Both the position numbers and the translations under genes were made by a program. From Vulcanimicrobiaceae bacterium (GTDB taxonomy: Bacteria; Vulcanimicrobiota; Vulcanimicrobiia; Vulcanimicrobiales; Vulcanimicrobiaceae), in the NCBI GenBank assembly GCA_046262595.1, contig JBHEMM010000032.1, forward strand, positions 1-11,787: DNA of 11,787 nucleotides, read 5' to 3'. The stretch's first letter is position 1. The number at the start of each line of letters is the position of its first letter. The notes beneath the pieces are model-generated. The model made no database searches and was not told where the DNA came from. It saw only the letters and a list, made by a program, of their open reading frames with translations. Below are positions 442 through 11,787 of this stretch, one piece after another.

Positions 442-1650
442 GTGTCCTCCGTCTTTTCGTCACCCAGCTTTCGCCGCTATTACACGGGTCAAGCGCTCAG
501 TTTGCTCGGCGATGGTCTGCGCGTGCTGGCAGTACCGCTGCTCGTCTATAAGCTGACGGGGTCGGCGCTTTCGACCGGCGTTTCTTACGTGTGCGAGATT
601 GCGCCGTTTTCGATTTTCGGCCTCATCGGCGGGTCGCTCGCGGATCGCCTGGACCGCCGGATGTTGATGATCGGCACGGACGCGGTGCGCTGCGCCATCA
701 TGACGGCGTTCGCGCTGCTCTACGCGGCACATGCGCTTACAATCCCCATGCTGTACGGCGGTCTCATTCTGATCTCGATGTGCGCCGCGGTGTTCTTGGG
801 CGGCCAGGCGTCCAGCATTCCGTTTCTGCTCGGCAAAGAGCGTGCGACGCAGGCAATCGCGGCGATCAATGCTGCGGAAAGTTCATCGAACCTGATTACG
901 CCGGCCATCGGCGGCGCGATCTTCAGCATCTTCGGGCCCTTGCCGGCGCTCGCAGTCAATGCTTTCACGTACTTGTGCTCCCAACTCGTACTCGGCAGCA
1001 TTAAAACGCTAGGGCCTGAAAAAGTGAGCGGGCTGCCCGATTTGCGAACGATCGGCAAAGACATTGCGCTGGGTTTCCGCTTCGTCTTCGGCGATCGCGG
1101 AATGCGCGCTCAAGCGTATGCGAGTTGCACGCTCAACCTCATCGGCTTCGGCGGCTTTTCGATCATCATCCCATTCTTGAAGAAAACGTTCGGTGCAAGC
1201 GATCCCCAAGTGGGCCTATTCTTCAGCATGACGGCCGTCGGAGCGGTCTGCGGCTCGCTTGCCGCCGCGCGCATCGGTTCGCGCTGGCCCATCGGGCGCA
1301 TGCTGTGCGTCGCGCTGACGCTGGATTCGCTGCTGTTCATCCCCGTCGTCCTCACGCGCAACATGTGGGTTGCGGGAACGTTCTGGGCCATCGGCAATGG
1401 CTGCGCCTACTTCGAGATCGCGCAGATCATCGGATTCCGTTTGCGCATCACGCCCGAGCCGTACGTCGGACGGGTGTTCGGCGTCGTGCGTCTCGTGGTG
1501 CTGTGCGGCATGGCGCCCGGCATTTTGGGCTTCGGCTATCTCGCGGACCACTACAATCCGCATGCCGCGATGACGGTGTCGGCGATCGCTTACGTCTTCG
1601 TCGCGCTGGGCGCCATCGCAACGCCCGCAATACGCGAAGAGCGCCGCTAA
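442..1650 (+). CDS. MFS transporter (DHA3/macrolide-efflux-like, 12 TM)
   Basis: 402 aa with about 12 hydrophobic segments, MFS motif A (GGSLADRLDRR), N-terminal FRRYYTGQALSLLGD and C-half ITPEPYVGRVFG pattern. GTG start. Confidence 0.92.
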   Translation: MSSVFSSPSFRRYYTGQALSLLGDGLRVLAVPLLVYKLTGSALSTGVSYVCEIAPFSIFGLIGGSLADRLDRRMLMIGTDAVRCAIMTAFALLYAAHALTIPMLYGGLILISMCAAVFLGGQASSIPFLLGKERATQAIAAINAAESSSNLITPAIGGAIFSIFGPLPALAVNAFTYLCSQLVLGSIKTLGPEKVSGLPDLRTIGKDIALGFRFVFGDRGMRAQAYASCTLNLIGFGGFSIIIPFLKKTFGASDPQVGLFFSMTAVGAVCGSLAAARIGSRWPIGRMLCVALTLDSLLFIPVVLTRNMWVAGTFWAIGNGCAYFEIAQIIGFRLRITPEPYVGRVFGVVRLVVLCGMAPGILGFGYLADHYNPHAAMTVSAIAYVFVALGAIATPAIREERR

Positions 1651-1663
1651 ACGCGGCGCTCTT
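1637..1663. terminator. Perfect 11-bp hairpin between convergent genes, possible bidirectional terminator
   Basis: AAGAGCGCCGC-TAAAC-GCGGCGCTCTT, with the MFS stop codon in the loop. The U-tract is weak. Confidence 0.5.
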
Positions 1664-1687
1664 GCATTTGCGGGTCGAGAGGCGTTC

Positions 1688-2281
1688 TTAGTACGGGCGT
1701 CCGGCTTGGCGGCGGACCATCAGCGGACGCGTGAGCGTCAGTTGGAAGTTCGTGCCCTGCTTCATCACGATGTTCGACTTCTTGTTGTAGCCGACCAGGA
1801 ATCCGCCCACTGCTCCGACGGCTCCGCCCAGGCCGCTGTGGAAAATCGTCTTGCCGATGATGTTGCCGGCGAGCATGCCGCCGATCGTCGTGAGCGCGAC
1901 GTGGCCGCCGTTGCGCGTTTGCTGCTGCGGCGCGCCGGTGGTCATCACGGCGTTGATCGGATAGCTCGCGCCGTTCTGCAGCGTGATGCTGTCCCACGCG
2001 AAGTGCAGTTGGGGCGTGCGGCCTTGGCCGGCCTGAACCACTTTAACGATCGTGCCGTTCACGATCGCATTTTGGAAGGTCGTGTCGTCGTTTGGATACG
2101 GTGCTATGACGCGCGCGGTGAAGTGCTGGCCCGCATACGCGTTGCCCGAGTCAACGGTGTCCTGCATCTGCACGTTGACGGCCTGACCTTGCGAAAGCGT
2201 CACGGTCTGAGCGAGCGCTGCTACAGGCAGCATGAATGCCAGGAGCATCGCCAGCGCCGGGATTCTGCTTGGATGGATCAT
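1688..2281 (-). CDS. Secreted protein with VirB10/TrbI-like beta domain and glycine-zipper hairpin
   Basis: Strong SD AAGGAG 5 nt before ATG and a Sec signal peptide (AMLLAFMLPVAALA|Q). Sequence pattern VNVQMQDTVDS..AGQHFTARV..IVNGTIVKV..LHFAWDSITL, Gly-rich TIGGMLAG..GGAVGAVGG, and C-terminal GTNFQLTLTRPL. The family is recognised by pattern only. Confidence 0.7.
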   Translation of the reverse strand: MIHPSRIPALAMLLAFMLPVAALAQTVTLSQGQAVNVQMQDTVDSGNAYAGQHFTARVIAPYPNDDTTFQNAIVNGTIVKVVQAGQGRTPQLHFAWDSITLQNGASYPINAVMTTGAPQQQTRNGGHVALTTIGGMLAGNIIGKTIFHSGLGGAVGAVGGFLVGYNKKSNIVMKQGTNFQLTLTRPLMVRRQAGRPY

Positions 2282-2341
2282 GAGTTCTCCTTTTATACCT
2301 CTACCGGGGTTGATTCGGTGCCATGGTGCCCATGGTGTCTG

Positions 2342-2369
2342 TTACGTAGAACGTTGCGCGTCTACGTAA
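2342..2369. other. 9-bp inverted repeat overlapping the metK stop codon
   Basis: TTACGTAGA (2342-2350) pairs with TCTACGTAA (2361-2369). There is no U-tract on the minus strand. Confidence 0.4.
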
Positions 2370-3582
2370 AGTTCGGCACCTTGAGCGCCTGCGTGCCGGC
2401 TGCCTTGCGAAGCGCCTCAACCTTGTCCAAGCGCTCCCACGGCAGGTCGAGATCCGGACGCCCGAAGTGCCCGTACGCGGCCGTCTGGCGGTAGATCGGG
2501 CGGCGCAAATTCAGATGCTGGATGATGGCGGCCGGGCGCAGATCGAACGTCGTTTTCACGAGCTCGGCAATCTGCTCTTCGGGAATCTTCGCCGTTCCGA
2601 ATGTCTCCACCAGAACGCTGACCGGATGCGCAACGCCGATCGCATACGCAACCTGCACCTCGCACCGATCGGCCAAACCTGCTGCAACGACGTTTTTTGC
2701 AACGTGGCGCGCTGCGTACGCTGCCGAGCGATCGACCTTCGTCGGATCTTTGCCGGAAAACGCGCCGCCGCCGTGACGCGCCATGCCGCCGTACGTGTCG
2801 GCGATAATTTTGCGTCCGGTCAGGCCCGCATCGCCCTTCGGCCCGCCGATGACGAAACGGCCCGTCGGATTGACGTAGACGCGCGTACGCTCGTCGCGCA
2901 GCGAGGCCGGAATAACGTGGTTTATCACTTTTTCGGTGATCTCGGCCCGAATCGTTTCGAGGGGAATATCCGGATCGTGCTGCGTCGAGATCACGACCGC
3001 TTCGACGCGCACCGGCATATCGTTTTCGTACTCGACCGTCACTTGCGATTTGCCGTCGGGCCGCAGATACGGAATGTCGCCGTTCTTGCGCAGCGCGCTC
3101 AAATGACGGGTGAGATTGTGCGCCAGCACGATTGGCAGCGGCATGAGCTCCTCGGTTTCGCGGCACGCGTAGCCGAACATCATGCCCTGATCGCCCGCAC
3201 CGATCGTCTCGAAGGCGTCCTCGGGGTGTTGACCTGTTTTCGCTTCGAGCGACTTGTCGACGCCCATCGCGATATCGGCCGACTGCTCGTCCACCGACAC
3301 GCTTACGCCGCACGTTTCCGCATCGAATCCGACGGCGGACTTCGTGTAGCCGATGTCGGCAATGACTTCACGAACGATGCGCGGAATATCCACGTACGTC
3401 GTCGTGCTGATCTCTCCGGCGATGTGGATCTGACCCGTGATCGCAAATGTCTCGCAGGCGACGCGTCCGTTCGGGTCGGCTGCGAGAATCGCGTCCAGCA
3501 CGGCATCGGAGATCTGATCCGCGACTTTGTCTGGATGACCTTCGGTGACCGACTCGCTGGTGAAAAGACGACGGTACGCCAT
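2362..3582 (-). CDS. metK: S-adenosylmethionine synthetase (methionine adenosyltransferase)
   Basis: Signature motifs [48 protein letters not shown] and TAAYGHFGR. Confidence 0.99.
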
Positions 3583-3586
3583 TCGC

Positions 3587-4924
<1,338 letters not shown>

Positions 4925-4973
4925 TCATATTCTGCCCGAGGTTTACCCGGCCCGCCACCAAATGTGTCGCATT

Positions 4974-5531
4974 GTGGATAGTTTGGACGGATATCTGACA
5001 AAACTCGCATCCTCCGAGCCCACGCCGGGCGGCGGAAGCGCCGCGATGGTCTGCGGGGCGCTCGCGTGTTCGCTGGTTGCGATGGTCGCGCGCATCTGTC
5101 ACGCGGAAGGACTTGCCGAAGAAGCTGACGCCCTGCGCGAGCAGATGACCGTCATGCGCGAGCAAGACGAACGGGCGTTCCAAGCCGTCGTGGACGCCAA
5201 GGGTGACGCCGATGCGGTGCAGCGGGCGCTGTTCGGCGCGGCGGCAGCGCCGCTTCAAGGCGCTGGCGCGGCGTTTGAAGCGCTCAAGTTATGCGAGCGC
5301 GCGCTCGCGCTCAACAACCGGCATCTGATCAGCGACGTCGGATGCGCCGCGGAGTTTGCGCACGCCGCCGTGACGGCATGCGCCTATAACGTGCGCGTGA
5401 ACCACCGTTACATCAAGGCAAGCCGCGAACGCGCCGATGTTGCCGCGCAGCGCACGGCGCTGGGATCGCTCGAGGCGCAGGCGCGCGCGCTGTATCAGCG
5501 CACCGCCGATGCGGTCGCGGGCGGCTTATAA
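4974..5531 (+). CDS. fchA: Cyclodeaminase/cyclohydrolase family protein (FTCD C-terminal domain; FchA-like methenyl-THF cyclohydrolase)
   Basis: Motifs YLTKLASSEPTPGGGSAA..GAL..SLVAMVARI, D..AF, NRHLISDVGCAAEFA and AYNVRVN. The start is GTG 4974 or ATG 4962; the listed 4527 start runs antisense over ahcY. Confidence 0.85.
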   Translation: MDSLDGYLTKLASSEPTPGGGSAAMVCGALACSLVAMVARICHAEGLAEEADALREQMTVMREQDERAFQAVVDAKGDADAVQRALFGAAAAPLQGAGAAFEALKLCERALALNNRHLISDVGCAAEFAHAAVTACAYNVRVNHRYIKASRERADVAAQRTALGSLEAQARALYQRTADAVAGGL

Positions 5532-5586
5532 CGACGGCGCGGTCCAAAGGCGTTCCTGACGAATTGCGCGCCCGAAGTGGCGTTGA

Positions 5587-6393
5587 TTAGCGCTCTACAG
5601 TCCTCAGAAAAGGACGGATGTCGGCTTCGTCAACCTCCATGCCGACGCCCCTGCGGTGATAACGGATGTCGTGGAAATCGGCGCCCGCAGTCATCAATAG
5701 GCCGTACTGTTTGGCGCGATCGCGAAAATATTGAATTTGCCCCGCTTCGTGCGTCGGGTAAAACACCTCGAGGCCGCGCAGCCCGCGTTCGGCAAGCGTC
5801 CCGATCATCGCGTAATCGCGCAAGCGCCCCGGGTGCGCCAGTACCGGAATACCGCCGGACTCCAAAATGACATCGATCGCCTCGTACGGCGTGATGTGCG
5901 TGGACGGCACGTAACCGGGGGTACCGCGGCGTAAGAACTTGCGGAAAGCCGTTTCAATGTCGGGCGCGATGCCCAAAGACACCAAGGCTTTACCCACGTG
6001 CGGCCGTCCCAGCGAAGCGCCTTCTTTCGCGTGCGCGTGAACGTCCTCGAGCGTCAGCTCGTGCCCCGCGCCGCGCAGCAGATCGACGATGCGCGCGATG
6101 CGCACGCGGCGCGCCGCGCGATTCGCTTCGAGCACGCGCGAGAGCGCTGAGTCACCCAAGGGCAGCCGGTAGCCCAGCACGTGCACTTCGCCGTCATCCC
6201 ACGTGGTGTTGATTTCGATGCCCGTCACGACCCGCGCGCCGCCCGTATCCAGCGGCTCGCGGTACGCGCCGAGTGTGTCGTGATCCGTAATGGAGAAGAC
6301 GCAGACGCTGCGTTCGCGCATGAACGCGCACAGCGCCGCAGGTGAAAGCGAACCGTCGCTTTCCCACGTATGGGAATGAAAGTCGACCAGCAA
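5587..6393 (-). CDS. PHP-domain phosphoesterase (YciV/TrpH-like 3',5'-nucleoside bisphosphate phosphatase family)
   Basis: Motifs DFHSHT..SDG, ITDHDT, GIEI, EVHVLGY, GRPH, LAHP, GLEV and GADFH. TTG start 5 nt after the spoVS stop. Confidence 0.93.
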   Translation of the reverse strand: MLVDFHSHTWESDGSLSPAALCAFMRERSVCVFSITDHDTLGAYREPLDTGGARVVTGIEINTTWDDGEVHVLGYRLPLGDSALSRVLEANRAARRVRIARIVDLLRGAGHELTLEDVHAHAKEGASLGRPHVGKALVSLGIAPDIETAFRKFLRRGTPGYVPSTHITPYEAIDVILESGGIPVLAHPGRLRDYAMIGTLAERGLRGLEVFYPTHEAGQIQYFRDRAKQYGLLMTAGADFHDIRYHRRGVGMEVDEADIRPFLRTVER

Positions 6394-6398
6394 GCCGC

Positions 6399-6698
6399 TT
6401 AAGTCAGGGGGCGCCGCTCGACTGCGAGCGAGATGCCGGTCCGCTCGTTACCGTTGATCTCAACGTCCATGAAGGAAGGCACGCACGCCAGGTCGATCTC
6501 TCCGCCCTTCAAATAGCTGCGGGCGATGGCCACCGCCTTGACCGCCTGATTGATCGCACCGGCGCCGACGGCTTGCAGCTCAGCCGCCGTCCGTTCGCGC
6601 AGAACGGCCGCGAGTGCGCCTGCAACGGAGTTCGGATTGCTCTTCGCCGAGACTTTGAGCACGCTGCTCGTAAGTTGCCGTACGGGATTTTCAATCAT
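6399..6698 (-). CDS. spoVS: Stage V sporulation protein S family (Alba-like nucleic-acid-binding fold)
   Basis: VLKVSAKSNPNSVAGALA..QAVGAGAINQAVKAVAIAR..CVPSF.DVEINGNERTGI. ATGA overlap with the ymdB stop. Confidence 0.96.
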   Translation of the reverse strand: MIENPVRQLTSSVLKVSAKSNPNSVAGALAAVLRERTAAELQAVGAGAINQAVKAVAIARSYLKGGEIDLACVPSFMDVEINGNERTGISLAVERRPLT

Positions 6699-7492
6699 GC
6701 TATGCCTCGTTGGAAGATGCGCTTGATCTCCGTAGCGCGGCCGGACCCTACGTCGACTGTTACGACGGCAGCGCAGAATTGTTTGCTTCCGGACTTCTGT
6801 ACCGAAAACCGCTCGGACACTCCTAAGGTGAAGCGTTCTAAAACAGCGTCCGTTTCCATCCCGATGACGCCGTCCGTCGGGCCGGTCATGCCGACATCGC
6901 TCACGTAGGCGGTGCCGCCGGGCAAAAGGTGCTCGTCCGCCGTCTGCACGTGCGTATGCGTGCCGTACACAGCCGAGACGCGTCCGTCGAGGTAGCGCCC
7001 CAGGGCGACTTTTTCGCTGGTGGCTTCGGCATGCACGTCCACGACGATGATGCTCGTGCGCTGTTCCATTTCCGCGACGGCGGCTTCCGCAACACGAAAC
7101 GGGTCGTCCACCGGCGGCATGAACGTGCGGCCCATGATATTGAGAATGCCCACGGTGGCGTCTCCAGCTTTAATGAAGTTGAAGCCGCGGCCCGGAACGC
7201 CCGGCGGATAGTTCGCCGGCCGCACGACGCGCTCGCTTTCCTCTAAGTACGTCTTGAACTCGCGCTTATCGAAGATGTGATTGCCGCTTGTAATGAAGTC
7301 GACGCCGGACTCAAACATTTCGCGCGCGGTTTGAGCGGTGAGGCCGAAACCGGCTGCCGCGTTCTCGCCGTTAGCGATGCACAGGTCGATGCCGTGCTGG
7401 TCGCGCGCCAGAGGCACGCAGCGCTTGAGCGTATCGCGTCCGGGGGAGCCGACGACGTCCCCGATGAGGAGCAGGCGCAGCGAAGTAGCTAT
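6695..7492 (-). CDS. ymdB: YmdB/TIGR00282 family metallophosphoesterase (2',3'-cyclic nucleotide phosphodiesterase); true start non-canonical (ATA 7492 or CTG 7480)
   Basis: Motifs NGENAAAGFG, TSGNHIFD, RPANYP, DVHAEATSEK, GTHTHVQTAD and DVGMTGP. The in-frame extension upstream of the listed 7417 start reads LRLLLIGDVVGSPGRDTLKRC, the family's first metal-binding motif. Confidence 0.93.
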   Translation of the reverse strand: MATSLRLLLIGDVVGSPGRDTLKRCVPLARDQHGIDLCIANGENAAAGFGLTAQTAREMFESGVDFITSGNHIFDKREFKTYLEESERVVRPANYPPGVPGRGFNFIKAGDATVGILNIMGRTFMPPVDDPFRVAEAAVAEMEQRTSIIVVDVHAEATSEKVALGRYLDGRVSAVYGTHTHVQTADEHLLPGGTAYVSDVGMTGPTDGVIGMETDAVLERFTLGVSERFSVQKSGSKQFCAAVVTVDVGSGRATEIKRIFQRGIA

Positions 7493-8037
7493 CTGCGGGC
7501 CGACGCCTTAGCTTTTTTCTGCGCTTTCAGAAAGTACACGAGCACCCGCTTCTCTTCGCGGAAGCCCACCAGACTTCTGGATTGCGCCGGATCGCGCAGC
7601 GCCTCGATGGCGGATTCGGCAAGTTCGTCCTGCAGCACGGGATCCTCATCCGGCTGCTCGTCCGGAACGGGGTTGCGCACGAGCGCCGCGCCGAAGCGTT
7701 CGCAGAACAGACCCACGAGCATCGCCAATTCGCCGTTGCTGAACGTCTCGAGATCGCGGCTGACATGAACGAAACTCATCGCACGGTCCGACTCGCACTC
7801 GACCAGCACGCTGCCCTCGTCACCGCCCAGGGCCAAGAAGCCGTCGACGTGTTCCTCGATGTCCGCCGCCAATGCGCGCTGCGCGCTTTTGTCGATCCGC
7901 TGCGAGACCGCAAATGAAAAGCGCACGCTGTTCTCGCCCGACGCCGAACGCATCGAAGCGATCTCCGGATAGCGCACGAGCAGTGCGCAGACCAGCGAAA
8001 CGGTATCGCTATTTTCGACGGGTAAACGGGCGCTCAT
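7489..8037 (-). CDS. Hypothetical acidic soluble protein, first gene of the ymdB-spoVS-PHP operon
   Basis: 182 aa with a plausible SD (GAAGG) and a stop overlapping the ymdB start. SLVCALLVRYPEI and LVGFREEKRVLVY resemble an uncharacterised protein recalled next to ymdB in Firmicutes (not verified). Confidence 0.75.
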   Translation of the reverse strand: MSARLPVENSDTVSLVCALLVRYPEIASMRSASGENSVRFSFAVSQRIDKSAQRALAADIEEHVDGFLALGGDEGSVLVECESDRAMSFVHVSRDLETFSNGELAMLVGLFCERFGAALVRNPVPDEQPDEDPVLQDELAESAIEALRDPAQSRSLVGFREEKRVLVYFLKAQKKAKASARR

Positions 8038-8194: not shown

Positions 8195-8271
8195 CGCGGA
8201 CCGGCAGCCCTCACCAGGGAAGCGGCCGGGGCGGTAAGATTCTTTCACGCTAATGCGATGAGGGGATGACT

Positions 8272-9276
8272 ATGCGCTTTGCCCGCTCCTGGGCCGCTCC
8301 TGCGGCAGTTCTGATGCTTTCCTTGCTGGCTGCGTGCGGCGGCGGCGGGGGCGGAGGCTCGGTGACGCCGCCCGGCGGCGGCAACGGCGGCGGCGCAACG
8401 CCGACGCCGCACGCGACGGCCACACCGGCTCCTGGCGCGACCGCAACACCCACGCCGGGTGCGACGGCAACGCCTACGCCGACCGCAACCGCCACGCCGA
8501 CTGCGGCCGCGACCGCAACGCCGACGCCGAGTGCGTCAACGACGCCTTCCGCGCTCAGCTGGGTCGCTGCGGGGACCGGTAACATCAATGGCTCAGACGA
8601 CCAGTTCGTCAGCAGCGAACCGCACACGGGCAACAGCAACAACGGCGAAGGCAACCTCATGCCGGGCGATCAGGGCGCCCAGCCCAACGGCGGCGGGCAA
8701 GGTCCGGTGGGGACCGGCGCGGTGGACGGCATCACGTGCGACGCCTCGATGTCGAACAACTATCATGTCCACGCGTTCGTCGGGCTCTTTGTAAACGGCA
8801 CCGAGATCGCGATCCAGGACGCGGCCGGCATGGTGAACCCGTACGGCGACTTCGGTCCATCGGCAGACACCGACGGCTATCCGAATCAAGAAATCTACGC
8901 CACGTGCTTCTACGATCTGCACACGCATGACGCAAGCGGCATGGTGCACATCGAGAGCACCAACCCAACCGGCGCGACGATCAATCAGTCGATCTACAAC
9001 GTGAACAACTTCTTCGACGTCTGGGGCGTCATGGTGAACTCCACGCAGTTCGGTAAGTTCAGCGGTCCGGTTGTCGTATACACCTCGGGCCAGCTCTCTC
9101 GCGCCGGCCAGTGCCAGGGCCAATACTGCGAGGTGGGCTCGAACAGCTACTCTCTATGGACCGGCGATCCCACGCAGATCCCGCTCTACTCGCACGAAGT
9201 GATCTGGTACGAAGTTGGGACTGGCAACCCGGACGCGGCGCATTTGCCCGGCGTTAACTTCGCCATCACCCAGTAG
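8272..9276 (+). CDS. Lipoprotein with Gly and Pro/Thr/Ala linker and a C-terminal His-motif (putative metal-binding) domain
   Basis: SD GAGGGG 6 nt before ATG 8272 and lipobox LAAC (Cys22 at 8335). Domain motifs YHVHAFVGLFVNG, CFYDLHTHDASGMVHIES and FFDVWG. Tandem stops TAG TAA. Confidence 0.85.
   Translation: MRFARSWAAPAAVLMLSLLAACGGGGGGGSVTPPGGGNGGGATPTPHATATPAPGATATPTPGATATPTPTATATPTAAATATPTPSASTTPSALSWVAAGTGNINGSDDQFVSSEPHTGNSNNGEGNLMPGDQGAQPNGGGQGPVGTGAVDGITCDASMSNNYHVHAFVGLFVNGTEIAIQDAAGMVNPYGDFGPSADTDGYPNQEIYATCFYDLHTHDASGMVHIESTNPTGATINQSIYNVNNFFDVWGVMVNSTQFGKFSGPVVVYTSGQLSRAGQCQGQYCEVGSNSYSLWTGDPTQIPLYSHEVIWYEVGTGNPDAAHLPGVNFAITQ
8395..8550 (+). repeat. Intragenic imperfect 24-bp (8-aa) repeat encoding an ATATP(T/A)Px linker
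   Basis: Encodes ATPTPH-ATATPAPG-ATATPTPG-ATATPTPT-ATATPTAA-ATATPTPS. Confidence 0.8.
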
Positions 9277-9367: not shown

Positions 9368-9919
9368 ATGAAAGCACTCTCCCGGCCGGGCCGGGTCATG
9401 GCACACGCGCTCGTCGCAGCCGCGCTCGGCCTACCCGTCGCGCTTTTGGCGCATGCCTTCGCGTTCGGAAGCAACCACGCTGTAGCCGGGGCGCTCCAAA
9501 GCGCTGCGCTGGCCGGCGGCGCGCTTGTCCTGCTGAGCGTGGTCGCGTTATCGGCGCGCGCGACGGCGCAAGGCACGATCGCCGCGGCGCGCGTGCGCGC
9601 GCACTTGCCGCATGCGGTTTGGCTGAGCATCTCCGGCGCCGCCTGGTTCGGGCTGCTCGAGTTGTGTGAATCGCCGCACGCCATCGCGGCAGCCGGTGTT
9701 GCCGCTGCACTGATCGTTGCATCTCTAGCCATTCACGCGCTCGTCGGCGCATTCGCGCGCTGGCTTGCCGCCATCGCGATCGCCGTCTGCACCGGACGTT
9801 TCGATGCGAGGGCGCGCGCAAACCACGTGCCGGCTTTTTCATTCTTTGCACCGCGTGCGCATCGTCTGCTCGCGCACTCCACGCGGCTGTTTTCGCGGCC
9901 GCCCCCTGCCTTTTCCTAA
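9368..9919 (+). CDS. His-rich 4-TM membrane protein ending in RPPP; putative regulatory leader / translation-arrest ORF
   Basis: 183 aa from ATG 9368 with about 4 hydrophobic helices, 10 His and an ELCESPH loop. The C-terminus is LFSRPPPAFS*, with RPPP codons at 9896-9907. Confidence 0.78.
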   Translation: MKALSRPGRVMAHALVAAALGLPVALLAHAFAFGSNHAVAGALQSAALAGGALVLLSVVALSARATAQGTIAAARVRAHLPHAVWLSISGAAWFGLLELCESPHAIAAAGVAAALIVASLAIHALVGAFARWLAAIAIAVCTGRFDARARANHVPAFSFFAPRAHRLLAHSTRLFSRPPPAFS

Positions 9920-9953
9920 ACGCCGCGCGTTTCTTCACCCGTTTAGGAAAGGC
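9908..9953 (+). promoter_or_regulatory. SD-sequestering mRNA hairpin (translational attenuator)
   Basis: TTTCCTAAACG (9912-9922) is the exact complement of CGTTTAGGAAA (9940-9950), extended by GCC/GGC across a 1-nt bulge. The 3' arm carries the AGGAAAGG SD of the ATG at 9959. Confidence 0.85.
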
Positions 9954-9958
9954 TCACC

Positions 9959-11704
9959 ATGTCCGGTTTTTCTTCGGGCGCGCGCAGCTTGTGCGCCGTC
10001 GTCCTTCTCCTTCTCGGCGCGCACGCGAACGCGTCGGCGATTCCAGTCTTCGCGAACGGTCAAGGCGTCTCGTGTGAAACGTGCCACACGACGTTTCCGG
10101 GCATGACGCGCTACGGCATGTCCGTGATGATGACAAACTTTCAAATTTTGAACCGCCATCTGCAAGACCAGGCGCTGCCGGTTTCCGCGCGTCTATACAT
10201 CACCTCGCTTCTGGGCAACGGCGATCATCCGGGCTCAACGACGGTGGACGATCTCTCGCTGCTCGCAGGCGGTTTTTTAGGGCGAAACTTCACGTGGTAC
10301 GGCGAGCAGCATGTTATCGACACCGGAATGCCCGGCGAGACGGAGCAGCTGTGGCTGTCTTGGAACGGCGTGCTGCGTGGAACGAACTCGCTGCAAGTCG
10401 GTAAATTGCATACGCCGTTTCCTTTCATGCCGGCGCACGCGTGGACGATAAGCCCGTATCTTTTGGCAACGCAAACGACGGGCGAGAACACGTTCAACCC
10501 CAGTGATGCGCGCTGGGGCGCCGCATTCAACGGCATGTCGAACGAGTTCATGTACAGTCTCTCCTGGCTGACCGGCAGCGGGCCCACCGGCGACGCGCTC
10601 AATTACAACAAGACAGCCAACCCGCGCGCCCTCGACGCCAACATCTCGTACGGCGGCATGCAGCTGCCCTGGACCGCCGGCTTGGTTGCGATGCGCGGCG
10701 ATTCGCCGGTGAACGATCCGCTTTCGGGTCGTTTCCTGACCAGCAACGCCTTCACGCGCGCAGGCGTCTACTTCGCATATCAAGATGCGATGTGGCACTA
10801 TCAAACGATGCTGTACCGCGGTTCGGACGCAAACCCCGGCGTCGGATTGACGAATGTTCCGCTGAGCGGATTTTTCTTTGAGGCGGAGCGCGATCTTGGT
10901 TGGCGCAATCATCTTCTTCTGCGTTACGATGTGGCGTCGAGCGACACGCTCAACCGTCAGCTCGTCGCGGACCTCTCGCACAATCTTGCGCCGAACGCGG
11001 CGGTCATCGCTGAAGTTGCGGGCTATCCCGGCGCTAAGCCGGCGGTCGGCCTGAGGCTTGCCTACGCCGGCCCCTACGAGAGCGGCAAGCGCTTCTTGCG
11101 CAACGCAACCGTTGTGCCGGTAAACACCCAGAGCGCGAAGACTTCCGCGCAGCCGGCTGCCGCGGCGTCCGCGCCGCCCGCAACCAGCGGTGATGCGAAC
11201 AATGGCGCCAAACTGGTGCAGGCAAACGGCTGCGCCGGTTGTCACGGTGCCGCATTGCGGGGCGGATCCGTCGGCCCCGCGCTCTTCGGCATCGAGCACA
11301 AACTCTCGAGCCCGCACATTGCAGACTTCATCGCACACCCTCGGGCGCCCATGCCGAATTTCGGCTTCAGCGCGCAGCAGATTGGCGACATCGTCGCTTA
11401 CCTCTCGAACTTGGACGGCGGTGCGGCGCAGGGTCCCGTCGTAACGTTCGATCCGACCACGCCGACCGATCACGCAACGATAACCGTGCGCTTCCCCGGA
11501 ACTCCGCCGGCTGCGGTAAGCGTTGTACCAACGATGCACATGGGCTCGGCGGCAATGGCAGCGCGCGCGGTACCTTTAACGCAATCGGCCTCCGACCCGC
11601 ACGTTTTCACCGGACCGGTCGTGTTTTCGATGAGCGGACCGTGGACCGTGCGCATCGAGTACGACGGCAAAACGCTCGACGTCCCGCTCAACGTGGGACA
11701 GTAA
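9959..11704 (+). CDS. Cyc2-like heme c/outer-membrane porin fused to a second cytochrome c domain and a YtkA-like domain
   Basis: Signal peptide ending ASA|IP, then AIPVFANGQGVSCETCHTTFPGMTRYG (Cyc2-type N-terminus, CxxCH at residues 39-43). About 300 aa of amphipathic aromatic beta-strands and an Ala/Pro linker follow. Then come CAGCHG..GP.L..MPNF (class I cytochrome c, C425-H429, M465) and C-terminal MHMG..FTGPVVFSMSGPWTVRIEY. Confidence 0.85.
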   Translation: MSGFSSGARSLCAVVLLLLGAHANASAIPVFANGQGVSCETCHTTFPGMTRYGMSVMMTNFQILNRHLQDQALPVSARLYITSLLGNGDHPGSTTVDDLSLLAGGFLGRNFTWYGEQHVIDTGMPGETEQLWLSWNGVLRGTNSLQVGKLHTPFPFMPAHAWTISPYLLATQTTGENTFNPSDARWGAAFNGMSNEFMYSLSWLTGSGPTGDALNYNKTANPRALDANISYGGMQLPWTAGLVAMRGDSPVNDPLSGRFLTSNAFTRAGVYFAYQDAMWHYQTMLYRGSDANPGVGLTNVPLSGFFFEAERDLGWRNHLLLRYDVASSDTLNRQLVADLSHNLAPNAAVIAEVAGYPGAKPAVGLRLAYAGPYESGKRFLRNATVVPVNTQSAKTSAQPAAAASAPPATSGDANNGAKLVQANGCAGCHGAALRGGSVGPALFGIEHKLSSPHIADFIAHPRAPMPNFGFSAQQIGDIVAYLSNLDGGAAQGPVVTFDPTTPTDHATITVRFPGTPPAAVSVVPTMHMGSAAMAARAVPLTQSASDPHVFTGPVVFSMSGPWTVRIEYDGKTLDVPLNVGQ

Positions 11705-11705
11705 C

Positions 11706-11787
11706 GTGCGCCGCCGCGACTTCCTGGGCGCCGGCGGCGGCGCAATGCTCGCGCTTACGCTGCCGCGTCTCTCGTCCGCGGCTTCCG
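11706..11787 (+). CDS. Tat-exported protein, 5' fragment only (runs off the window)
   Basis: GTG 1 nt after the previous stop. Reads MRRRDFLGAGGGAMLALTLPRLSSAAS, a twin-arginine RRxFL motif plus h-region. Not in the supplied ORF track. Confidence 0.7.
   Translation, partial: MRRRDFLGAGGGAMLALTLPRLSSAAS

Follow-up and report, generated by a model that had tools for sequence, protein, structure and literature searches.

The stretch analysed here, called the window, comprises 11,787 nucleotides of contig JBHEMM010000032.1 (assembly GCA_046262595.1) from a soil bacterium of the phylum Eremiobacterota, family Vulcanimicrobiaceae. It encodes a single protein, the cytochrome-porin or fusion protein, in which a predicted haem-plugged outer-membrane pore is joined to a second cytochrome and a likely copper-binding domain. 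A small leader gene precedes it. A multicopper oxidase begins one base after its stop codon, with the first 27 codons inside the window. The features, all on the forward strand, are as follows.

9368..9919 (+), leader gene, 183 residues (alternative ATG 9398; gene call P0147), with four long helices; predicted metal-sensing ribosome-arrest peptide
9449-9478, 9659-9679 and 9896-9907 (+), leader motifs: His pair, ExxExxH and C-terminal RPPP, respectively
9909..9952 (+), predicted mRNA hairpin; 5' arm 9909-9922 over the leader stop codon, 3' arm 9940-9952 with the Shine-Dalgarno (SD)-like sequence of the cytochrome-porin gene
9959-11704 (+), open reading frame (ORF) of the cytochrome-porin fusion, 581 residues
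9959..10039 (+), signal peptide, residues 1-27, judged by eye; A-x-A end before IPVF; helix at 2-19 in the model
10040..10174 (+), Cyc2-like haem plug; CETCH at 10073-10087; clade-specific Met49, Met54, Met57 and Met58
10181..11071 (+), 16-strand OprP-like beta-barrel; loop 3 at 10409-10510 with His151, Met157 and His160
11072..11188 (+), linker, little conserved; modelled with low confidence at residues 390-408
11189..11419 (+), class I cytochrome c domain; CAGCH at 11231-11245; Met465 codon at 11351-11353
11432..11704 (+), YtkA/FixH/CrdA-like beta-sandwich; invariant Met526, Met528 and Met558
11706..11787 (+), start of the three-domain multicopper oxidase, twin-arginine (Tat) signal VRRRDFL; continues to G000:C32:13123 across a 10-base N gap

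The four-domain protein is real and conserved. A sequence-only reading of this DNA had described one ORF with a signal peptide, a CxxCH haem site and a fused periplasmic cytochrome c of the His/Met type; this is borne out, as the ORF carries every motif quoted and the Pfam cytochrome c domain matches above its cut-off at residues 412-485. Relatives number 207 at E<=0.001 (8000 scored candidates). The 119 listed besides the protein itself are 57-74% identical to it, and the named ones belong to Eremiobacterota/Vulcanimicrobiota. Across 100 aligned relatives, every sequence keeps both CxxCH motifs, His43, His429, Met465 and Met526/528/558. The family loci are L001-L053 (the fragment L070 is excluded), and conservation of the fusion across the 52 other loci rules out an assembly artefact or chance fusion. 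In a sample of the phylum, matches occur in 99 of 251 genomes, three of them unpublished; full-length copies, C-terminal-only copies and distant barrels are counted together here. Barrel and cytochrome-YtkA are separate genes in four family loci (L030, L037, L048, L052), the second gene having its own signal-like start.

In the AlphaFold2 model of the fusion (mean predicted local distance difference test score, pLDDT, 77.6; predicted template-modelling score, pTM, 0.60), residues 75-371 form 16 strands, the cytochrome domain is helical and the C-terminal domain folds as a beta-sandwich. The top structural match of the model is OprP (Z 24.2, root-mean-square deviation (rmsd) 2.7, 280 aligned). 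The barrel domain has no family in Pfam or NCBIfam and no match among plasmids; in a PDB sequence search the sole match region was the cytochrome c domain. The porin fold expected from the letters alone is thus reproduced, and the expected shortness holds for residues but not for strands, whose predicted number (16) equals that of Cyc2. A barrel too small for the Cyc2 type is rejected on this strand count. Both haem regions fall below pLDDT 50, so that, at this pTM, the haem-haem reach is not readable from the model. The C-terminal part aligns with Helicobacter pylori CrdA (9ll2; Z 10.4, rmsd 3.3, 96 aligned, rank 50), described as a Met-rich copper-binding, copper-resistance protein (PMC9182242). 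Pfam YtkA (PF13115) gives weak matches in 37 of 41 family members at E<=1 (best 2.2e-5), and the Atlas neighbours of the domain are YtkA clusters, at 0.87-0.90. The earlier naming of a YtkA-like domain agrees with these matches and with the CrdA-like fold, although the copy in the window stays below the cut-offs, with 17.3 bits against 25.9 for YtkA and 17.4 against 23 for FixH (PF05751).

The constant partner of the C-terminal half is the oxidase. It has Cu-oxidase_3, Cu-oxidase and Cu-oxidase_2 domains with HWH, HxH, HPxHLHGH and HCH motifs, and an invariant Met/Asp/Glu-rich stretch in domain 2. In NCBIfam it comes closest to the copper-resistance oxidase TIGR01480, yet without reaching the cut-off (208.5 vs 478.95 bits in relative L028). 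A Tat multicopper oxidase lies directly 3' of the fusion in 47 of the 53 family loci. Five of the other six end within 133 bases of the match; L040, a full-length fusion, is without an oxidase behind it. The linkers of L040 and L036 hold Met-Gly-rich repeats. An oxidase-anchored census matched 56 of 161 family genomes, 54 of which were examined (G000, the source genome, and the unpublished G305 were left out). Cytochrome-YtkA is encoded directly upstream of the oxidase in 49 of the 54; the barrel is present in 30 (scored in 29 as a single ORF with the cytochrome), cytochrome-YtkA and oxidase occur without a barrel in 19 (two of these at contig ends), and the oxidase is alone in 5. The barrel is therefore an optional part. 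Cytochrome-YtkA travels with the oxidase even where the barrel is missing and therefore belongs first to the oxidase; the view of it as a pure appendage of the barrel is rejected. Four barrel-less copies (L076, L120, L124, L133) retain the upstream His-rich gene of the fused form, which suggests that the barrel was lost in place. Among 15 cytochrome-YtkA proteins checked, that of L092 alone lacks both Met motifs, and L092 is also the sole such locus without a detected oxidase; the L078 protein misses one Met pattern. A three-haem version in another family (L085-L087) consists of a barrel and two cytochrome c domains, followed by a two-domain Tat multicopper oxidase; an RPPP leader is present at L085 and L086. 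A second, distant multicopper oxidase of the source genome is encoded at G000:C10 25538-27568.

By descent the barrel half belongs with Cyc2. Characterised Cyc2 proteins (A. ferrooxidans Cyc2, Cyc2PV-1, Cyt572) are described with a signal peptide, an AxPxFA then CxxCH plug and a predicted 16-strand barrel modelled on the OprO/OprP-like porin class (PMC8406198, PMC13741234), all of which the fusion shares. The published motif is AXPXFAR[Q/K][T/Y] upstream of CxxCH and PXL downstream (PMC8406198). The fusion keeps AIPVFA and CxxCH. NGQ replaces R[QK][TY] and is invariant in 53 aligned family and paralogue sequences; PGM replaces PXL, with Met49 invariant in the 100 relatives, while the paralogues keep PxL. 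Further differences from Cyc2 are two haems, the C-terminal cytochrome and YtkA-like domain, a Met/His plug and loop 3, the oxidase neighbour and leader control. A single haem and a barrel that ends the protein, as in Cyc2, are found only in the four split forms. With the haem-barrel profile (A3), full-length proteins of the AxPxFAR type are hit at E values from 1e-10 to 1e-24 (1.84 billion searched), a comparison with canonical-motif proteins and with no characterised Cyc2 sequence. At E<=0.001 the profile yields 509 cluster representatives; of 92 listed hits of at least 330 residues, 8 match the strict canonical Cyc2 pattern and many more have AxPxFAR-like starts. On sequence grounds the fusion protein is a homologue within the Cyc2 superfamily, not a canonical member. 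The Cyc2-like origin with a divergent N-terminal motif that had been proposed is supported, and so is the accompanying warning against assuming Fe(II) oxidation.

Paralogue group 2 (16 loci, ~30% identical) has a barrel and one cytochrome where complete, without an oxidase neighbour. The contig name of its member L069, k99_46640, occurs on a long branch of a published acid-mine-drainage Cyc2 tree (PMC8357290 supplement). At their C-terminus, related barrels bear a single cytochrome, a pair of cytochromes or a cupredoxin, so that by sequence the joining of barrels to periplasmic carriers is a recurring feature of the phylum. The architecture had been presented as unusual; C-terminal fusions are in fact not unique to the family. 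The P0168 cluster (Baltobacteraceae) joins a Cyc2-like barrel to a C-terminal cupredoxin, a natural Cyc2-rusticyanin-like fusion. Further Cyc2-like haem barrels of Eremiobacterota (L054-L069, L095-L114) are in some cases in tandem (L100), fused to a cytochrome (L112) or beside a different oxidase (L104, L109). A canonical-motif paralogue used as query on plasmids finds two proteobacterial Cyc2-like proteins, which the family profile matches weakly and at the N-terminus only. L115 2918-5935 (Caballeronia plasmid) encodes, one after another, a high-potential iron-sulfur protein, a Cyc2-like cytochrome with the canonical motif and a further cytochrome of the c type.

A respiratory role, with the protein as a Cyc2-Cyc1 fusion feeding a caa3-type terminal oxidase for energy, is the least supported reading and is highly improbable. 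COX1 is matched four times in the source genome, among these at a locus with CuA and CxxCH, a cytochrome c assembly gene is present, and the cytochromes and cupredoxins fused to related barrels mirror the Cyc1 and rusticyanin partners. However, the constant neighbour is a non-pumping multicopper oxidase and not a set of respiratory genes, cytochrome-YtkA remains with this oxidase where the barrel is missing, and RuBisCO was not found in G000 (89.7% complete).

The plug and pore carry a Met/His signature. Of positions kept as Met or His at >=90%, the 38 family barrels have 14 and the 15 paralogues 4. Among the 14 are the plug residues Met49/54/57/58 and, in loop 3, the long loop that connects strands 5 and 6, His151/Met157/His160; in porins this loop lines the constriction. 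The loop-3 His/Met motif is present in 53/53 family loci and 3/3 three-haem loci, and in 0/16 group-2 paralogues and 0/24 other barrels. A redox-coupled copper porin with a tethered chaperone, one of the options raised from the sequence, gains from this plug, from loop 3 and from the CrdA-like fold; the oxidase neighbour and the leader with its hairpin had been missed, as had the pairing of cytochrome-YtkA with the oxidase where no barrel is present.

The same signature bears on iron and manganese. A Cyc2-like haem that oxidises dissolved Fe(II) or Mn(II) and passes electrons via cytochrome 2 to the oxidase, short-circuited to oxygen, would serve detoxification, or iron uptake via a receptor. 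Ancestry favours this, with homology to canonical Cyc2-motif proteins and the OprP-like fold, and so does the His/Glu sensor of the leader, whose ExxE recalls iron sensors. Paralogue L069 stands in the acid-mine-drainage tree (PMC8357290), mine-tailings Baltobacteraceae are predicted iron oxidisers (PMC13594681), and a porin-oxidase route for Fe(II) has been hypothesised (PMC5566968). Set against these, the canonical FAR[QK][TY] and PxL are replaced, the clade-specific gains are Met and His, soft-metal ligands, and the published Cyc2-like protein sits in the paralogue group without an oxidase neighbour. An Fe(II) or Mn(II) oxidase is considered unlikely.

The preferred reading is a metal-gated, non-respiratory outer-membrane cuprous-oxidase module, probably for Cu(I), with a rough probability of 40%. 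Cu(I) is favoured because Met/His ligands occur at three points: the pore, the YtkA-like domain and oxidase domain 2. Also in favour of the reading are the oxidase adjacency, two SCO1 genes downstream of the oxidase on the same contig, the CrdA-like C-terminal domain, the leader with its hairpin, and the precedents of CutF and of a Thioclava cytochrome c-oxidase operon. Loop 3 would fold into the pore as in other 16-strand porins, so that His151/Met157/His160 come close to the Met-rich plug. This Met/His site would hold a metal ion, most likely Cu(I), for oxidation by haem 1, and the electron would pass via the second haem to the neighbouring multicopper oxidase and then to oxygen. Cytochrome 2 and the YtkA-like domain are probably periplasmic and tethered, since both termini of an even-stranded barrel face the periplasm. 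Both may dock on the oxidase, where the cytochrome would donate electrons and the Met domain would hand over Cu(I). The module would be made only when the leader permits. Because a periplasmic oxidase that reduces oxygen pumps no protons, it would serve metal homeostasis and not energy conservation.

The leader is likely a metal-sensing translation switch, as judged from its end motif, the hairpin and the codon use at the junction. Its C-terminus has RPPP three residues before the stop codon. Over 69 loci (917,421 bases) the leader-end pattern has 46 sense hits and 1 antisense hit; 35 of the sense hits lie just before a cytochrome-porin and 11 just before a TonB-dependent receptor. None occurs in the 16 paralogue loci. 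Leaders are of two sequence types (A, B). His22, Glu91, Glu94, Arg170, Pro172 and Pro173 are invariant in 47 leaders, a second His follows His22 by a few residues, and no Cys pair is conserved across the 47. The leader model (pLDDT 81.6) has four long helices with the invariant residues at loops 1-2 and 3-4. A fold search with this model gives generic helical matches only (best Z 7.7), and the leader has no family in Pfam or NCBIfam.

The junction between leader and cytochrome-porin could be folded at 33 of 35 loci; the ribosome-binding region is mostly paired in 30 of the 33, and z is < -1.5 in 28. In type-A leaders the anti-SD lies within the Pro codons. CCT is used at the first Pro in 15/32 and at the second in 20/32, the related leaders not being independent, against 189 of 3605 Pro codons (5%) in neighbouring genes. 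In type B, to which the leader in the window belongs, the 5' arm spans the stop codon. All 12 5' arms compared there showed stronger pairing with their own 3' arm than with a 3' arm from any other sequence class. Since the 5' arm or anti-SD sits at the Pro codons or the stop codon, a ribosome stalled at RPPP would cover the 5' arm and free the ribosome-binding site and start. The stall may be set by metal that His/His/Glu/Glu bind along one side of the helical bundle. Barrel-less loci have a leader hit in 2/9 cases, one a remnant, so that leaders go mainly with outer-membrane channels.

Arrest peptides of this general type are described elsewhere. CutF, before a multicopper oxidase, has a PPP motif and an SD-hiding stem-loop and is turned on by copper (10.1101/2025.02.05.636593, PMC9973294); CruR, before a receptor, has the opposite polarity (PMC9426467). 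CutF-cutO (Rhodobacter) and CruR-bfrG (Bordetella), with DUF2946 copper-sensing leaders, share with the present leader an exported upstream ORF, a Pro motif at the C-terminus, a few residues short of the stop, a short spacer and a multicopper oxidase or TonB-dependent receptor downstream; CutF also shares the hairpin over the downstream SD. The leader here differs as a 183-residue four-helix membrane protein with His/His/Glu/Glu, without a conserved CxxC and with RPPP in place of RAPP/GPPP. The regulated gene differs as well, being a haem porin. Membership of DUF2946 is rejected: there is no conserved CXXC/CxxxC, the length is 183 residues (vs under 150), the helices are four, and DUF2946 is absent from the 25 listed of 41 weak Pfam families. 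One DUF2946-type trait is present, a motif rich in proline (RPPP) at the C-terminus, upstream of a metal-homeostasis gene. Streptomyces SLIV_18480, an RAPP/RGPP arrest peptide, resembles the leader in its published description, not by sequence comparison: four predicted transmembrane segments, a His cluster, C-terminal Arg-x-Pro-Pro and a metal-related downstream gene (PMC12992588). Its predicted site is His3/Met as against His2/Glu2 here, and phylum and target are different.

A TonB-dependent receptor is present in 17/53 family loci and an ArsP-like permease in 8/53; receptor and cytochrome-porin are in tandem in L020, L027 and L050. The receptor of L047:11709-14024 and its relatives have a His pair conserved in the plug and a CxxxxxC loop, stand behind a type-B leader and have only weak PDB matches. 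A rival reading is copper import and cuproenzyme loading. Electrons would then flow outward, Cu(II) would be reduced to Cu(I) by the haems at the pore, loading of the oxidase would fall to the YtkA-like domain and SCO1, and the leader would turn the operon on under metal shortage, with metal releasing the stall as in CruR logic. Such import agrees with leaders placed before a receptor with a plug His pair, with the tandem loci and with the preference of leaders for outer-membrane channels. It agrees also with ORFs assigned by their motifs as CopD-like and YcnI-like, upstream of the barrel-less copies in L091 and L152. CruR provides a precedent (PMC9426467). However, a four-copper oxidase is costly to make under copper shortage, SD hairpin and PPP motif are closer to copper-induced CutF than to Rho-dependent CruR, and profile searches of G000 (89.7% complete), which find one such barrel and one leader, find no ortholog of the receptor. 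Import is rated as rather doubtful, a little above iron or manganese oxidation.

Several points weigh against the cuprous-oxidase reading. The Met/His motif and the oxidase link arose once by sequence, as family and three-haem barrels form one clade (Shimodaira-Hasegawa-like approximate likelihood ratio test 91, quick tree), so that their counts are not independent. Two of the 24 motif-free barrels (L104, L109) adjoin oxidases of another type. Neighbours for copper supply could merely metallate the oxidase, whatever its substrate. With His/Glu and no Cys pair, the ligands of the leader suit copper no better than Fe, Mn, Ni, Co or Zn. Leaders of these types also precede a TonB-dependent importer, the leader of the window is of the type usual there, and this fits import better than detoxification. 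No leader hit lies directly upstream in 18/53 family loci. The pattern behind the 46 sense hits was drawn up after the motif was noticed, the arm classes of the 12 type-B junctions were drawn by eye, and the hairpin in the window exceeds shuffled sequences in stability by a narrow margin only (z -1.2 to -1.6).

Two members of an unnamed family flank the operon, at window 8266-9276 (+) and at G000:C32 14132-14896. They have conserved HxH and HTHDxSGxxH motifs, by which the family is possibly metal-binding; about six copies occur in G000, with no informative Pfam match. Window 442-8037 encodes a major facilitator superfamily transporter, MetK, AhcY, a PHP-domain protein, SpoVS, YmdB and a conserved 182-residue hypothetical protein. 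This housekeeping block borders the operon in about 30/53 loci.

PcoAB/CopAB with PcoC/CrdA resemble the module in combining a periplasmic oxidase, an outer-membrane barrel and a Met-rich beta-sandwich in one operon. PcoB is a barrel not known to carry haem. The module has neither a haem-free PcoB-type barrel nor an oxidase above the TIGR01480 cut-off; it adds an electron path via two c-type haems, and its barrel has 16 strands against the about 10-12 given for PcoB (PMC5566968). Thioclava PmcA belongs to a cytochrome c-multicopper oxidase operon linked to extracellular electron uptake (PMC13488337). The likeness, one of description and not of sequence, is a periplasmic monohaem cytochrome c encoded beside a multicopper oxidase; neither a haem porin nor a YtkA-like domain is part of the available account of PmcA. 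No description of the fusion, of its oxidase link or of the leader was found in the literature titles and abstracts searched; the candidate lists supplementary to PMC9973294 and PMC12992588, and the tree that PMC8406198 deposited at figshare, lay outside that search and may contain these proteins.

A wider proposal is tentative, and somewhat doubtful as a whole. A Cyc2 lineage may have been re-purposed from iron oxidation to a copper-selective redox porin hard-wired to a multicopper oxidase. Its switch would be a class of membrane arrest peptides not described so far, built of four helices with His/Glu ligands, which sense metal in the periplasm and open a hairpin that hides the SD. Cyc2 homologues serve as genomic markers of iron oxidation, and it is on such grounds that iron oxidation has been ascribed to Eremiobacterota (PMC8357290, PMC13594681). 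The fusion clade is a concrete case of a Cyc2-like protein seemingly built for metal homeostasis. It offers the His/Met of loop 3 as residues to test, and it occurs naturally in fused, split, barrel-less and three-haem forms. The leader, if it acts in this way, would extend copper-type arrest-peptide sensing to a membrane-embedded His/Glu family. Taken by its sequence, the module likely points to a metal-handling machine, probably for copper, rather than to the iron-fuelled respiration usually assumed of such pores.

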